Positions 2,455 to 61,833 of a stretch of DNA of 64,000 bases are shown one piece after another. The first letter of the stretch is position 1, and each line of letters begins with the position of its first letter. Origin of the DNA: an uncultured Clostridia bacterium. Lineage in GTDB: Bacteria; Bacillota; Clostridia; TANB77; CAG-508. The notes beneath the pieces are model-generated. The model was not told the DNA's origin. It did not search any database and worked only from the letters and a program-made list of their open reading frames with translations. The position numbers were made by a program, and so were the translations under genes. Location: NCBI GenBank assembly GCA_948502395.1, contig CAOPES010000009.1, positions 1,980-65,979 on the forward strand, in the 5' to 3' direction.

Positions 2455-2541
2455 TTGCCATTGGGGACGGACCTTTTTGGCAATTTTTTGCCACTGGGGA
2501 CACTCCTACTTCAAAAAATCGATGTTTTTTGCTCCGTCTCC
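2455..2541. repeat. GGGGAC-core intergenic repeat, composite (TTGGCAATTTTTTGCCA type plus GATGTTTTTTGCTCCGTCTCC type)
   Basis: ccattggggacggacctttttggcaattttttgccactggggacactcc ... gatgttttttgctccgtctcc. Units recur at 14844, 57494 and 61767 and (rc) at 61720, 16658 and 5262. Confidence 0.85.
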
Positions 2542-2548
2542 AAATACA

Positions 2549-4399
2549 TCACTCGTCATCCAATTTTAGTACTGATAAAAATGCTTCTTGTGGTATTTCT
2601 ACGTTTCCAATTTCACGCATTTTTTTCTTTCCACGTTTTTGTTTTTCCAATAATTTTTTCTTTCTCGTTATGTCTCCACCATAACATTTTGCTAATACGT
2701 CTTTTCTCATTGCTGATATTGTTTCTCTTGCAATTATTTGTCCACCTATTGCTGCTTGTAATGGTATTTTAAATAGTTTTCTTGGTATTACTGTTTTTAG
2801 TTTTTCTACCATTTTTTTGCCTCTGCCATATGCGCTATCTTTATGAACTATAAAGCTTAGTGCGTCAACCGGTTCGCCATTTATATGGATGTCCAATTTT
2901 ACTAAGTTTGATTTTTTGTATTCTTTGAATTCATAGTCTAGTGATGCATATCCTTTTGTTTTTGATTTTAGATTGTCAAAAAAGTCATATATTATTTCAT
3001 TTAATGGCATATCATATACCAATGTAACCCTGTTTTCGTCTAGATATTTCATATCGATGTATATTCCACGTCTTCTTTGACATAGTTCCATTATGTTTCC
3101 TACATATTCTTTTGGTGTTAAGATATTTGCTGTTACAAATGGTTCTTCTATATATGATATTTCTTGTTGTTTTGGTAAGTCTTCTGGATTGTATAGTTCT
3201 ATTACTTGTCCATCTGTTTTGTGCACTTTGTAGATAACTGATGGTGCTGTTGTAATTAAGCCTAAGTCAAATTCTCTATCTAACCTTTCTTCTATTATTT
3301 CTAAATGTAGTAATCCTAAAAAACCACATCTAAACCCAAAACCTAATGCTACTGATGATTCTGCTTCAAATTCTAAGGCTGCATCATTTAGTTTTAATTT
3401 TTCTAAAGCTTCTTTTAAATCTTCATATTGACTTCCGTCTATTGGGTATAGTCCGCAATATACCATTGGTGTTACTTTTTTATATCCTTTTAATGGCTGC
3501 TCAGCTGGATTATTTTTTAGTGTGATTGTGTCTCCTACGTGTATGTCTGATAGGTTTTTGACACTTGCTGCTATATATCCAACTTCTCCTGCTTTTATTT
3601 CATTTGTTGGCATATAGTTTCCTGGTAAGAAATATCCTACTTCTGCTACTGTGTAATTTCGTCCAGTTGCCATTAAAGTGATTTCGTCCCCTACTTTTAC
3701 AGTTCCGTCCATTATTCTTACATATGCAACTGCACCTTTGTAATTGTCATAATATGAGTCAAATATTAGACATTTCGCTTTTGCATTTTCGTCCCCCTGT
3801 GGTGCTGGTAGGTCTTTTACTATTCTTTCTAGTACTTCTTCTACATTTAACCCTGATTTTGCTGATATACATGGTGCATCTTCTGCTGGAATTCCTATTA
3901 TATCTTCTATTTCGTGTTTCACTTCGTCTACTCTTGCATTTGGTAGGTCTATTTTATTTAGTACTGGTAATATTTCTAAGTTGTTGTCTATTGCAAGATA
4001 TACATTTGCTAGTGTTTGTGCTTCCACTCCTTGGCTTGAGTCTACTACTAGTATCGCTCCGTCACAAGCTGCTAAACTTCTTGATACTTCATAGTTGAAG
4101 TCGACATGCCCTGGGGTGTCTATCAAATTTAATGTGTATTCTTGTCCATCTTTTGCTTTGTATATCATTCTTACTGCTTGGGATTTTATTGTAATCCCTC
4201 TTTCTTTTTCTATATCCATGTTATCTAAAATTTGGCTTTCCATCTCTCTTTTTGATAATACGCCTGTCATTTCAATTAATCTATCTGCTAGTGTTGATTT
4301 TCCATGGTCTATATGTGCTATTATACTAAAATTTCTAATGTGTTCTTGCCTATTATTCATATTTTCTTCACTTAACGCCTTTCTCTCAATTTTTGCCAA
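2549..4399 (-). CDS. lepA: elongation factor 4 (LepA)
   Basis: [24 protein letters not shown] and LepA C-terminal motifs. The true start may be the internal MNNRQEH. Confidence 0.9.
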
Positions 4400-4469
4400 T
4401 TTTATTTTAACATACTATTTATAAAATCACAATAGTTTTTTTAGATTAGTATATTGGATTTAAATCGTT

Positions 4470-4817
4470 CTAATTATAGTTTTCTAGCCCATTATATAGA
4501 TTATAAACTTGCTTATAGCCCATTTTACACAATTCTTTTTGAGCTTTTTTACTTCTATGACCTGTTGAACAATATACTATTATCAACTTTTCCTTATTGC
4601 AAAGTTCTTTTCCACATCTGAAACGCAATTCATATTCTGGTATAGATATAGCATTATTAATATGCCCTTCATTGTACTCTTGTGGGCTTCTTACATCTAC
4701 TACTGTTGCACCATTTGATATCAGTTTTTGCAATTCTTCTATATTTATGTCGTTCTTGTTCATCGAACGATTTGAATTTCTTGTTATCATATTTTTAAAT
4801 GTTTTCCACATATCCAC
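4470..4817 (-). CDS. rhodanese-domain sulfurtransferase
   Basis: Rhodanese fold motifs (VVDVRSPQEYNEGHINNAISIP, active-site loop IIVYCSTGHRS). Confidence 0.7.
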   Translation of the reverse strand: MDMWKTFKNMITRNSNRSMNKNDINIEELQKLISNGATVVDVRSPQEYNEGHINNAISIPEYELRFRCGKELCNKEKLIIVYCSTGHRSKKAQKELCKMGYKQVYNLYNGLENYN

Positions 4818-5084
4818 ATCCTCCTTTCGACATTTTATTTCAAAATTCGCCTTATTTTAATTATATGCAAATTTATTTTTTATGATACTTATATTTCCAA
4901 ATTATTTCACAAATATTTCAAGCTCTATTATTACTCTCTGTTGGTTTCGACTTATTTTTACATTTTTCTACTTTTTTAGTTTTATTTTGCTTATCTTTAT
5001 TTCAATTTTGTTTCAAAATCGTTACATTCTTCTTCGTTATGTTACTATGTTTTTTTGCTTTTTCACGTGTTTTGTTGTTGATAA

Positions 5085-5125
5085 CTTCCTGTGGAAACTG
5101 TGGATAACTCTGTGAATAACTTTAA
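5085..5125. promoter_or_regulatory. cluster of three tandem DnaA-box-like 9-mers
   Basis: cctgtggaaactgtggataactctgtgaataac contains TGTGGATAA (the perfect reverse complement of the TTATCCACA consensus) plus TGTGGAAAC and TGTGAATAA (one mismatch each), spaced about 10-12 bp apart. Confidence 0.4.
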
Positions 5126-59859: not shown

Positions 59860-59967
59860 GGGTGTTTTTGGGGACATTCCTTAAAAACACCCTATTTATA
59901 TATCTTTTTTAATCACATTATTTTTTTCGTTCTATGGGTGTTTTTAAGGACTGTCCCCAAAAACACC
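59860..59967. repeat. inverted pair of type-A GGGGAC hairpin repeats (43-nt spacer) between fabF and fabG
   Basis: gggtgtttttggggacattccttaaaaacaccc ... gggtgtttttaaggactgtccccaaaaacaccc. Confidence 0.85.
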
Positions 59968-59977
59968 CTAAACCACA

Positions 59978-60733
59978 CTACATTACCATTCCGCCATCAA
60001 CTTGAAGCACTTGCCCAGTAATATAAGAACTATCATCAGACGCCAAAAACTTAACAACATTAGCCACATCATCAGCCGTCCCCATACGTCTAAGCGGAAT
60101 ATTTTTAGCAATCTTAGCCTTAACATCGTCTTTCAAAACAGATGTCATATCAGTCTCTATAAATCCTGGTGCAACTGCATTTACAAGAATATTTCTTGAA
60201 GCAACTTCTTTTGCTAAGCTTTTTGTAAATCCAATTATTCCTGCTTTGGATGCTGAATAATTTGTCTGTCCCGCATTTCCTGAAATTCCAACAACTGATG
60301 AAATGTTTATTATTCTTCCGCTTCTTTTTTTCATCATATAAGGAACTACATTTTTCGTAACATTAAAAGTACCTATCAAATTAACATTTATAACACTTTC
60401 AAAATCTTCCTTTTGCATTCTCAAAATAAGCATATCTTTTGTTATTCCTGCATTGTTTACTAAAACGTCAATTGCTCCAAATTCATTTATTACTTCATCT
60501 ACAAATCTCTTTGTATCATCAAAATTTGATACATCTCCTTGTACTGCTAAGCACTTTACATTGTAACTCTCAATTTCTGCTTTTACATTTGACAATTCTT
60601 CATTTTCTTTTCTGTAATTGATTGCAATATCATAACCTTCTTTTGCAAATTTTATTGCAATTTGTTTTCCTATTCCACGTGTTGCACCTGTTATCAAGGC
60701 TACTTTCCCCATTTTTATCACTTTTCCTTCCAT
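59978..60733 (-). CDS. fabG: 3-oxoacyl-ACP reductase
   Basis: ALITGATRGIGK...NAG...SSVVG...Y...K. The true start may be the internal MGKVALITG. Confidence 0.85.
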   Translation of the reverse strand: MEGKVIKMGKVALITGATRGIGKQIAIKFAKEGYDIAINYRKENEELSNVKAEIESYNVKCLAVQGDVSNFDDTKRFVDEVINEFGAIDVLVNNAGITKDMLILRMQKEDFESVINVNLIGTFNVTKNVVPYMMKKRSGRIINISSVVGISGNAGQTNYSASKAGIIGFTKSLAKEVASRNILVNAVAPGFIETDMTSVLKDDVKAKIAKNIPLRRMGTADDVANVVKFLASDDSSYITGQVLQVDGGMVM

Positions 60734-60766
60734 TTTATATTTAAAATTACCTAAATTTTTACTATA

Positions 60767-61702
60767 TTAACTTTTCAAAATTTCAATTGCATCTTCCAAT
60801 GTTTTAACATCACATATGTTTAAAATCGTAATTTCCCTATCGCCCTTTTCTTTTTTCACAAATCCTGACAAAGTCTTACCTGGACCAATTTCAACAAAAG
60901 TATCTACTCCATTATTTAGCATATTTTCTAATGTTTTCGAAAATCTAACTGGATTTACAATATGTTTTGCTAAGATTTCTGTCATATCATCATTTGCCGA
61001 ATATGGCTCTCCGTCTAGATTTTTTATTACTGTTGAACTAAATGGTTTAAATTCCACCTTATCCAACTCAGCTTTCAAAGTTTCTGAACTTTTCTGTAAT
61101 TTTTCAGTATGAAATGGCCCAGCTGTATTTAATATCCTTACCTTTTTTGCCCCCATTTCTTTTGCTAGCTTCTCAGCTTCCAATATTCCTTCTTCTTCAC
61201 CAGAAATTACAATTTGCTCTTTTGTATTGAAATTTGCTGGAACTACAAAACCATTGTTTACCTTTTTACAAACTTCAACTATTTGCTCTTCATTTAGCCC
61301 AAAAACAGCTGCCATTTTCCAATTTCCTTCTGGTAACAAGTTTTGCATATATTCTCCACGTTTTTGGATAAGTTTAATTGCATCTTGTGTTGATAATGCA
61401 CCGCCACTCACTAATGCTGCATACTCACCTAAACTAAGCCCAGCAGACATTTCAGCTTTTATATTGTTCTTTTTTAAAATTTCCAATATAGCTAAACTCA
61501 TTGTTAAAATTGCACTTTGAGTATATTTAGTTTCATTCAAGACTTCTTCTTCACCTTCAAAAGAAATTTTTGCAATGTCCATTCCTGTTATTTCTTGTGC
61601 TAAATCGTATACTTTTCTTGCTTCTTCATATTTTTCATAAACATCTTTTCCCATTCCAATTTTTTGAGTTCCTTGACCCGGAAATAAAAATCCAATTTTC
61701 AT
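60767..61702 (-). CDS. fabD: malonyl CoA-ACP transacylase
   Basis: FLFPGQGTQKIGMG...GLSLGEYAAL. The track ORF N-terminal 13 aa come from the repeat; start moved to MKIGFLFPGQG. Confidence 0.85.
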   Translation of the reverse strand: MKIGFLFPGQGTQKIGMGKDVYEKYEEARKVYDLAQEITGMDIAKISFEGEEEVLNETKYTQSAILTMSLAILEILKKNNIKAEMSAGLSLGEYAALVSGGALSTQDAIKLIQKRGEYMQNLLPEGNWKMAAVFGLNEEQIVEVCKKVNNGFVVPANFNTKEQIVISGEEEGILEAEKLAKEMGAKKVRILNTAGPFHTEKLQKSSETLKAELDKVEFKPFSSTVIKNLDGEPYSANDDMTEILAKHIVNPVRFSKTLENMLNNGVDTFVEIGPGKTLSGFVKKEKGDREITILNICDVKTLEDAIEILKS

Positions 61703-61719
61703 ACTATTCTTCTCCTTTT

Positions 61720-61833
61720 GATGTTTTTGGGGACGGAGCAAAAAACATCACTTAGGTTGTTTTGCTCTGCCAGCAAGGTCTGTCCCCAATGGCAATTTAT
61801 TGCCAAAAAGGTCCGTCCCTGTTGGCAATTTTT
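61720..61833. repeat. GGGGAC-family composite repeat (GATGTTTTT type plus type B)
   Basis: gatgtttttggggacggagcaaaaaacatcac ... aaggtctgtccccaatggcaatttattgccaaaaaggtccgtccctgttggcaattttt. Confidence 0.85.

Follow-up and report, generated by a model that had tools for sequence, protein, structure and literature searches.

Dense REP-like hairpin repeats in uncultured Clostridia, probably maintained by a TIRYT-type Y1 transposase

To our knowledge, REP/REPIN systems with their REP-associated tyrosine transposases (RAYTs) have been studied almost only in Proteobacteria, and for the largest RAYT-like group (group 1/subclass 2.1) we know of neither biochemistry nor a convincing family of dispersed hairpins. 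Di Nocera et al. (2013) distinguished two REP superfamilies, tagged GTAG and CGTC, and described "TIRtrons" or "TIRYT", RAYT-like genes that are flanked not by REPs but by inverted repeats sharing the motif GGGGWSAS; some of these repeats are self-complementary, and they are dispersed as singles, dimers and clusters in "moderately abundant" families (PMC3733652). Quentin et al. (2018) equated TIRYT with TnpA-Y1 subclass 2.1 and with RAYT group 1 of Bertels et al. (2017) (PMC6006769; PMC5581495), assigned to the subclass a C-terminal helix-turn-helix (HTH) and the consensus GGGG[AT][CG]A[CG], and reported no REP-like structures beside its genes (PMC6006769). Group 1 is present in Clostridia, with a weak 16-mer association (PMC5581495). 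No Firmicutes or Clostridia repeat family of the TIRYT kind appears in PMC3733652, its strain list or PMC6006769. Here we describe a family of hairpin-forming repeats, most of them intergenic, in a 64,000-nt stretch of DNA from an uncultured Clostridia bacterium (hereafter the window). The units are probably REP-like, non-autonomous mobile DNA elements maintained by a TIRYT-type Y1 transposase acting on folded single-stranded DNA, and the family is a dense Gram-positive addition to the known class of REP/TIR repeats with RAYT/TIRYT genes, not a new kind of element.

The window lies inside a 131-kb metagenome contig (ena:ERZ17911606:SRR10078219_60), and the metagenome-assembled genome (MAG) GCA_949077975.1 is identical to it across 21 kb. 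Its GC content is ~29%, and the minus strand carries nearly all genes. Each repeat unit spans ~33 nt, in which a variable 6-10 bp stem (arm types A-D) closes over a conserved core starting (G)GGGAC(R)G; the strand given for a unit is the one that carries the G-rich (GGGGAC) sequence. The core GGRGACRKNCC occurs 12 times in the window versus 0.04 expected, a 300-fold excess that was reached in none of 100 shuffles, while GGGGACRG and GGGGWSAS each occur 13 times (0.54 and 2.4 expected, respectively). A repeat search of the window recovered all four arm types. A covariance model built solely from window units (23 units aligned in the G-rich orientation) identified 24 clear units, defined by scores of 26.6-45.4 bits (E <= 3e-4), at 15 loci, plus two weak extras, and ~8 further decayed copies could be seen by eye. 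These numbers bear out an earlier note on this DNA, which had counted at least 14 loci and about 29 units. Units account for 1.7% of the window and for 17% of the intergenic DNA in it, a density of about one per 2.7 kb.

The alignment of the 23 units shows that the four types share one register, with the core columns G, A, C and C invariant. When a 14-pair stem was imposed on it, 84.4% of cells were paired compared to 65.6% in column shuffles (0 of 500 reached 84.4%), both sides of the stem had changed in 10 of the 14 pairs, and sliding the partner by 1-3 columns reduced pairing to 42-57%. The B and C arms, for example, differ in a compensatory manner (TTGCCA/TGGCAA vs TGTCCA/TGGACA). This co-variation supports the earlier view of a single superfamily in which one core is combined with different hairpin arms. 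Two inner stem pairs are G.T (G.U) in most units and the two strands of a unit are therefore not equivalent. Types A and B have a near-palindromic GGAC(N)GTCC centre, whereas the palindromic right half is missing from type D and from many of the transposase-flanking units described below (GGGGACGGAGCA, GGGGACACCTTCC). Only the asymmetric GGGGAC(R) part is constant across units. The type A core, GGGGACAG, fits the GGGGWSAS consensus exactly.

Units are found singly, in short tandem arrays (33- or 39-nt period) and most prominently as head-to-head dimers. When neighbours up to 130 nt apart were paired, in the window and related genomes, 21 pairs were head-to-head ("+-"), none was tail-to-tail ("-+"), and six and four were "++" and "--", respectively. 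Single units fold as DNA with z of -3 to -5 on either strand. As single-stranded DNA, the type A dimers and the triple array between fabZ and accC each collapse into a single long hairpin at -36 to -48 kcal/mol (z -10 to -16). Head-to-head pairs that fold as one hairpin are the anatomy of REP doublets (BIME/REPIN). No canonical REP tetranucleotide (GTAG/GTGG at the 5' hairpin foot) is present at the unit ends, the invariant columns G, G, G, A and C lie within the hairpin, and the units are not canonical GTAG REPs. The dimers show no flanking target motifs, as their flanks merely extend the palindrome (TTTT...AAAA). A CRISPR-like array was considered and rejected, since unique spacers are absent and successive units adjoin each other with a 33-nt period. 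In the related MAG CATGLK01 (L022, 2455-3029), tandem plus-strand units (2455, 2488) and minus-strand units (2958, 2997) bracket ~440 nt of other sequence; this looks like a larger element with inverted unit arrays at its ends, possibly a decayed transposase locus or a passenger segment.

The units are associated with a transposase gene in related genomes. A motif screen of open reading frames (ORFs) in loci fetched from other genomes and metagenomes (L-numbers below) found one ORF directly beside a type-A-like repeat, in a Clostridia MAG from goat ileum (L082). It encodes a 253-aa protein that matches Pfam Y1_Tnp at 43 bits (cut-off 23), and the gene lies between ...TGTTTTTTGGGGACAAGTGTTTTTGGGGGACAGG... 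upstream and two ...GTCCCTGTCCCCAAAAACA... copies downstream. The protein has 994 homologues at E <= 1e-10, nearly all ~254 aa and from metagenomes. For three of these, the gene occupies one fixed chromosomal place in many samples, between hairpin units constructed in the same way (gatgtttttGGGGACaccttccaaaaacagc on the upstream side and gctgtttttggaaggtGTCCCCaaaaacagc on the downstream side, for instance). Scanning JGI metagenomes added 80 loci, 44 of them with a full-length gene, and 40 of these 44 carry GGGAC 50-300 nt upstream on the coding strand together with GTCCC downstream, mostly within ~110 nt; opposite orientations are rare, and by chance ~0.06 occurrences would be expected per 350-nt flank at the given GC. 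Each arm class is represented beside the gene: type A arms GGGTGTTTTTGGGGACGG..AAAAACACC in L162/L215 and L225, type B arms TTGCCAATAGGGACG..TTGGCAA in L206 and L161, type D ATGATTTTGGGGACGGAGCAAAAAATCAT in L153 and a type C-like TGTCCATTTTGGGGAC in L146. The GGGGWSAS-fitting cores GGGGACAC or GGGGACAG flank the gene in L082, L112, L116, L137-L139, L144, L146 and others, and the variant GGGGACGG does so in many more. When the window-only model was run on 518 kb of transposase loci it returned 26 hits, all within ~250 nt of the gene, with plus-strand units upstream and minus-strand units downstream. In two species whose transposase proteins are 64% identical the gene is in the same place, after an ABC-F ATPase gene, which is consistent with vertical inheritance of a single-copy gene more than with an insertion sequence. 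The search for a cognate transposase encoded elsewhere, suggested in the earlier note, thus led to a Y1 gene that is flanked by the units in related Clostridia.

The sequence and predicted structure of the protein point in the same direction. Among 22 homologues the invariant residues are H60 and H62 (NNHAHFL), Y120-I-H-N-N124-P125 (Y---NP) and S140-S141 (YSSY), and Pfam Y1_Tnp scores 36-50 bits on the homologues. Searched against the PDB by sequence, the family profile matches only 4ER8, the structure of E. coli TnpA_REP in complex with a REP hairpin (E 0.0034). Foldseek, run on an AlphaFold model (mean predicted local confidence, pLDDT, 84.7), likewise places 4er8_A first (E 9e-7; template modelling (TM) score 0.66 on the target), followed by the TnpA proteins of IS608 and ISDra2. 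The C-terminal ~110 aa are predicted to form a helical domain (pLDDT ~90); HTH models (HTH_11, 23, 24 and 28) match it below threshold, with E 1e-4 to 0.03, in three of eight proteins, and Bac_DnaA_C gave no match. Diagnostic sequence features and the published descriptions, rather than a tree, place the protein provisionally in TnpA-Y1 subclass 2.1/RAYT group 1.

The closest counterpart is the TIRtron/TIRYT system. In both, a single-copy, syntenic RAYT-like Y1 gene encodes a C-terminal part, with an HTH in TIRYT proteins and predicted to be helical here. Inverted repeats that share GGGGWSAS (exactly so in GGGGACAG and GGGGACAC) bracket the gene at a fairly constant distance; some are self-complementary, and they are also scattered through the genome singly, as dimers and in clusters. 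However, the reported TIRYT families are moderately abundant and come from Proteobacteria, Acidobacteria and similar groups, whereas the Clostridia family is dense, carries four arm classes on one core, and consists of complete hairpins with the motif in the loop region. REP-like structures, which Quentin et al. did not find next to subclass 2.1 genes, are plain beside the Clostridia genes.

The likeness to the REP/BIME/REPIN elements and RAYTs of E. coli and Pseudomonas is also extensive. Both comprise intergenic imperfect palindromes of 20-40 nt, with several families per genome and inverted doublets that form long hairpins in dominantly head-to-head order, and both have a cognate single-copy Y1 gene flanked by repeats, in the Clostridia so far in relatives of the window's genome, no target duplication and, for the protein, 4ER8 as the closest solved structure. 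The Clostridia units differ in that they lack GTAG/GTGG at the 5' foot and hold a constant GGGGAC(R)G inside the hairpin, and in their host, a low-GC Gram-positive lineage; the protein differs from the E. coli and Pseudomonas RAYTs by its extra ~110-aa C-terminal domain. The earlier note had not recognised the repeats as BOX, RUP, REP or any named family. As to kind, setting them apart from REPs was wrong: the units have REP/REPIN anatomy, their relatives flank RAYT-like (TIRYT) genes and their core matches the published TIRYT motif GGGGWSAS (PMC3733652, PMC6006769).

Two further groups of elements were compared. IS200/IS605 elements and their PATE derivatives share the HUH-Y1 enzyme, subterminal hairpins at both ends, the lack of target duplication and, by analogy for the Clostridia system, single-strand chemistry, and IS608 TnpA is the second structural match. 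By contrast with these multi-copy elements, the Clostridia gene is single-copy and syntenic across species and has no tnpB, the repeats vastly outnumber the gene, and the PDB sequence match is to TnpA_REP only, not IS608 TnpA. CGTC-tagged REPs (RPE-like; PMC3733652) are also small hairpins in which head-to-head dimers predominate, and the reverse-complement core of types B-D contains CGTC (CCGTCCCC). In those REPs, however, the hairpin has an 8-9 bp stem, a 4-5 nt loop and a CCA tail, and CGTC forms an unpaired head beyond the stem, whereas the Clostridia motif sits inside the hairpin, with a loop region of 12-17 nt, and the Clostridia units have an associated transposase while CGTC REPs have none. 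A link to CGTC-tagged REPs was rejected on the position of the motif, and the shared CGTC is taken as coincidence.

To ask how widely the units occur, a type A 16-mer (GTGTTTTTGGGGACAG) was scanned against one genome per species (596 Gb, in which ~280 chance matches were estimated). Most matches were chance singletons in unrelated phyla, and multiple matches were obtained only in several uncultured Clostridia MAGs (CATGLK01, CANBES01, CASSLW01 and others), which alone were used further. Genes in these MAGs are too diverged for blastn, yet units of types A, B and C are 83-95% identical to window copies. The covariance model that the earlier note had called for found 74 units in 268 kb of these loci, a sample biased by the fact that the loci were picked by a match. 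Thus, the family is not restricted to this window, and the same unit types are present in other uncultured Clostridia genomes.

None of the loci from the 16-mer scan is syntenic with the window. Orthologous fab clusters were instead obtained through FabF homologues that are 94%, 92% and 82% identical to the window protein (L130, L132 and L134, respectively). The fabG-fabF gap is 9, 12 and 20 nt in these relatives, compared to 131 nt in the window, where tgtggttta, a unit, a 43-nt spacer, a second unit and gtg are inserted between the stop codon and the ribosome-binding site. The TAG|GAGG target is not duplicated at this site, the single clean filled/empty comparison; target-site duplications, which the earlier note had proposed to look for, are thus not seen. 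The triple type B array between fabZ and accC is present in the 94% relative, cut to GTCCCCAATTGGACA in the 92% relative and absent from the 82% relative, and the type D unit upstream of fabD is found, among the three, only in the 94% one. In another species of the group, 99%-identical contigs differ by single units of 33, 38 or 54 nt within arrays. The presence and absence of units at orthologous sites in close relatives supports the note's suggestion of a MITE-like mobile family.

These observations are consistent with the following scheme. Each genome would carry one gene for a RAYT-like HUH-Y1 transposase (TIRYT; RAYT group 1/TnpA-Y1 subclass 2.1), located between GGGGAC-oriented and GTCCCC-oriented units. 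The enzyme would bind folded hairpins on transiently single-stranded DNA and would cut and rejoin DNA there, such that any segment with a left-type unit at one end and a right-type unit at the other could be copied or moved, leaving no target-site duplication. The movable unit would be the head-to-head pair, which mirrors the flanks of the gene itself, and most surviving insertions would lie in the short stretch from a stop codon to the following ribosome-binding site or at ORF 3' ends. Effects on mRNA, from hairpins in 5' untranslated regions and between cistrons, would be side effects or later co-options and not the family's reason to exist. The catalytic steps are modelled by analogy on TnpA_REP and IS608; we also infer that the window's own genome encodes such an enzyme, and which part of the protein reads the core.

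Several points weigh against this scheme. There is no RAYT/TIRYT gene within the window, in which a regular-expression screen of ORFs for HUH...Y returned just a spurious low-complexity ORF (35987-36430). Nor was the transposase gene of the window's own genome found among the displayed places of homologues P0044, P0116, P0121, P0255 and P0262, picked because their contig counts resembled those of window proteins; all of these places belong to samples and MAGs other than those of the window. Evidence for the transposase link therefore comes from other genomes within the broad lineage. The L082 protein scores 70.9 bits on the NCBIfam REP-associated tyrosine transposase model (REP_Tyr_transpos), below the curated cut-off of 80, and no TIRYT is known to cleave its repeats or to transpose (PMC3733652, PMC6006769). 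The core GGGGACGG of types B-D, carried by most Clostridia units, is off the GGGGWSAS consensus at one position, a further difference from the TIRYT repeats. One-unit changes in array length could arise from recombination or slippage rather than transposition. Finally, the spacers of 11 type A/D dimers are 30-43 nt long, AT-rich and unrelated among copies; spacer sequence is thus not conserved, unlike that of Pseudomonas REPINs.

The strongest competing explanation, and the one preferred in the earlier note, is that the units are RNA elements selected for mRNA stabilisation, processing or transcription attenuation. Seven clusters end ~4-30 nt from a ribosome-binding site and others lie directly after stop codons, and units are present in the essential fab operon and in the glyS leader after its T-box, and therefore must be transcribed. 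The hairpins are stable, and E. coli REPs stabilise upstream mRNA (PMC6006769). The T-box leader of glyS (33323-33505, minus strand) was detected at full model length with 73 bits (E 8.5e-16), a score below the Rfam gathering score of 93; hence it was missed when the whole window was scanned at Rfam gathering thresholds, which returned one tRNA and no named RNA family. However, 13 units lie on the plus and 11 on the minus strand of a region transcribed almost wholly from the minus strand. Because there is no sense-strand preference, although the two G.U-type pairs can form on one strand only, a primary function at the RNA level is unlikely and the note's first option is unsupported, with secondary effects on mRNA at particular sites being plausible. 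The distribution of single units by replication strand (5 plus, 3 minus) is uninformative. In addition, relatives with 82-94% FabF identity run the same operon without units, and selection on mRNA does not predict a specific link to a transposase gene.

Units also occupy ORF tails, which argues in the same sense. The last ~18 codons of the VanZ-like ORF (16985-17040, minus strand) run through a type A dimer, the protein ending ...WVFLGTDLKNTLKQSKSI, and two type B units encode the last ~27 codons of the BirA-like ORF (61751-61830, minus strand), which ends ...LPTGTDLFGNKLPLGTDLAGRAKQPK; in both tails the repeat core is translated as G-T-D-L. Thus, the description of the loci as intergenic stands for most of them and fails for these two tails and for the unit that overlaps the lepA stop codon. 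Likewise, units occupy 14 of the 37 gaps larger than 50 bp, together with the 45-bp fabD/birA gap, and the claim that almost every such gap is filled was overstated. Taken together, we consider it improbable that the family exists for an RNA function, while an RNA effect is likely as a secondary property at some sites.

Classical miniature inverted-repeat transposable elements (MITEs), that is, deletion derivatives of a DDE-type insertion sequence moved in trans via terminal inverted repeats, would account for dimers that have 33-nt inverted ends and, at ~105-120 nt, the usual MITE size. The MITEs and related repeats of Firmicutes (BOX, RUP and SPRITE of S. pneumoniae; EFAR; bcr1) are, like the Clostridia units, small, non-coding, intergenic folding repeats of low-GC Gram-positive genomes, and their mobilising enzymes are DDE-type or unknown. 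However, those are modular elements of 100-300 bp, compared to hairpin units of 33 nt here, and no sequence similarity to them was seen. Single units and tandem arrays are common in the window, spacers are unrelated among copies, the one clean filled/empty site shows no target-site duplication, and the flanks that these inverted ends match belong to a Y1 (HUH) gene, not to a DDE transposase gene. A classical MITE origin is accordingly very unlikely.

Even less probable is that the units are intrinsic (Rho-independent) terminators made alike by lineage-specific sequence constraints: although one dimer lies between convergent genes and a T-rich tract follows a few units on the transcribed side (as with the type D unit that follows lepA, ATTTTTTG, and the type A unit that follows sspH, CTTTTTTACTTTTT), most have 0-4 T in the next 10 nt of the transcribed strand, many lie between genes of one operon or, at glyS, between the T-box leader and the ribosome-binding site, and terminators would not share an 8-nt core, form head-to-head dimers or flank a transposase gene elsewhere. 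On this point the earlier note, which had argued against simple terminators, was right. We give equally little weight to the proposal that the units are sites for a host DNA-binding protein (a nucleoid protein, regulator or restriction/recombination factor) that reads the GGAC-N-GTCC palindrome of types A and B, the repeats having spread by other means; E. coli BIMEs do bind IHF, gyrase and Pol I (PMC6006769), but the palindromic right half is absent from type D and many transposase-flanking units, the head-to-head rule and transposase link would go unexplained, and such binding could be an added property.

The 15 loci are listed in Table 1. The composites at 2453-2551 and 61719-61830, the inverted pairs at 16936-17040 and 59860-59968 and the units in the accC/fabZ, fabF/fabG and birA-like/fabD gaps of the fab operon had all been described in the earlier note and were recovered here, as was its triplicated unit (11037-11195), a decayed array with a 39-nt period (11041-11195). 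A capsule/exopolysaccharide cluster (~17500-31600; Wzz, CpsB/D, glycosyltransferases and Wzy), with a GC content of 24-29% that is lower than the rest of the window, contains zero units.

Table 1. Repeat loci of the window, with unit types, strands, genomic context and covariance-model scores.
Locus	Units	Strand	Context	Score (bits)	Remarks
2453..2551	Composite: type B 2453-2485 (+); decayed B 2487-2511 (+); type D 2520-2551 (-)	mixed	SpoU-methylase start / lepA stop	45.4, 27.2	type D unit overlaps lepA stop codon
5229..5329	Type A 5229-5261; decayed units 5262-5294 and 5297-5329	+		44.3; decayed units 15.6 and 14	
5901..5933	Single type A	-	between polC C-part stop and DUF1294 gene start	42.2	
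11041..11195	Array: intact type B 11045-11077 (+); two decayed copies, 39-nt period (11087-11164); decayed inverted unit ~11160-11192	mixed		41.9	repeat family D1
11795..11860	Type C 11817-11849, half-palindrome GGACAAAATGTCC and extra GTCCC(C) repeats	-		26.6	repeat family D7; 95% identical to copy in another MAG (L054)
14830..14925	Type B cluster: decayed B 14830-14859 (+); type B 14860-14892 (-) and 14893-14925 (-)	mixed		36.5, 43.5	repeat family D6
16657..16689	Single type D (TGATGTTTTTAGGAACGGAGCAAAAAAACATCA)	+		37.2	
16930..17046	Head-to-head type A dimer: 16936-16968 (+), 17008-17040 (-)		convergent sspH / vanZ-like genes		one hairpin as single-stranded DNA, -41 kcal/mol, z -11
33204..33236	Single type A	+	between glyS T-box leader and glyS ribosome-binding site	40.9	
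36110..36164	Type C 36132-36164 and half-palindrome	-	abuts stop codon of 157-aa ORF	36.1	98% identical to 11795 locus (repeat family D7)
39217..39271	Type C 39217-39249 and half-palindrome	+	~10 nt upstream of ribosome-binding site of peptidase A24 gene	35	94% identical to copy in L007
46951..47050	Type C head-to-head pair 46963-46995 (+), 46995-47027 (-) and half-palindrome		murB / cofD-like gene	29.3, 34.2	repeat family D8; 84% identical to L023
57493..57591	Three type B units, 33-nt period	+, +, -	between fabZ and accC	43.4, 38.2, 42.3	folds at -48 kcal/mol, z -16
59860..59968	Head-to-head type A dimer: 59860-59892 (+), 59936-59968 (-)		fabG / fabF	42.3, 43.9	folds at -36 kcal/mol, z -10
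61719..61830	Composite: type D 61719-61750 (+); type B 61765-61797 (-) and 61798-61830 (-)	mixed	fabD / birA-like gene; type D just upstream of fabD ribosome-binding site	35.2, 35, 39.8	

Three genes of the window are each found as two ORFs. PolC is encoded on the minus strand (6040-10738) as two ORFs in different frames 10 nt apart, an N-terminal part with the PHP/exonuclease region (8048-10738, 896 aa) and the polymerase core (6040-8037, 665 aa). The identical 896-aa product is present on 16 contigs from several samples and the arrangement therefore does not stem from an isolated error of assembly; a split gene, a programmed frameshift and a pseudogene are the candidate explanations. The accA gene (carboxyltransferase alpha) lies in two ~150-aa ORFs (54383-55256, minus strand) and is split in the same way in the three fab-cluster relatives (L130 9523-10354, L132 8724-9537 and L134 9483-10305; FabF 82-94% identical), and the split is therefore a feature of the lineage. 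A glycogen-debranching gene (GDE_N/GDE_C) is found as two overlapping ORFs (44089-45315 and 43308-44120, minus strand). A separate stretch of ~160-200 nt within 49548-49748, over the start and upstream region of a 308-aa ORF to which no function was assigned, is 79-81% identical to sequences in L071, L087 and L091, while the neighbouring genes have no detectable DNA similarity in those MAGs; it has no Rfam match.

In public assemblies, contigs with a fabF homologue or the Y1 transposase gene are often just 1-2 kb long, about gene length, and it seems that the flanking repeats interrupt short-read assembly in this group. Small ORFs are also called within the repeat-bearing flank, one example, of 34 aa, lying upstream of the transposase gene in L215.

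A more far-reaching reading, which we offer tentatively and rate as rather doubtful, is that these repeats are the first dense REPIN-like population tied to RAYT group 1/subclass 2.1 (TIRYT) and the first in Firmicutes, with a mode of recognition unlike that of TnpA_REP and IS608 TnpA. The enzyme, perhaps via its C-terminal HTH, would read the constant GGGGAC(R)G inside a hairpin of variable stem, the four co-varying arm classes might each have a paralogue of their own, and some copies might have been co-opted as fab and glyS mRNA elements.

The repeats seem to break short-read assemblies and create ORF tails and spurious small ORFs, and they thereby affect MAG quality and annotation in this group. 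For the family itself, the uncultured low-GC gut Clostridia provide a clear pairing of gene and repeat, with a sharp core motif, natural stem covariation and both filled and empty sites, and the recognition rules and mobility of TIRYT enzymes are therefore directly testable.

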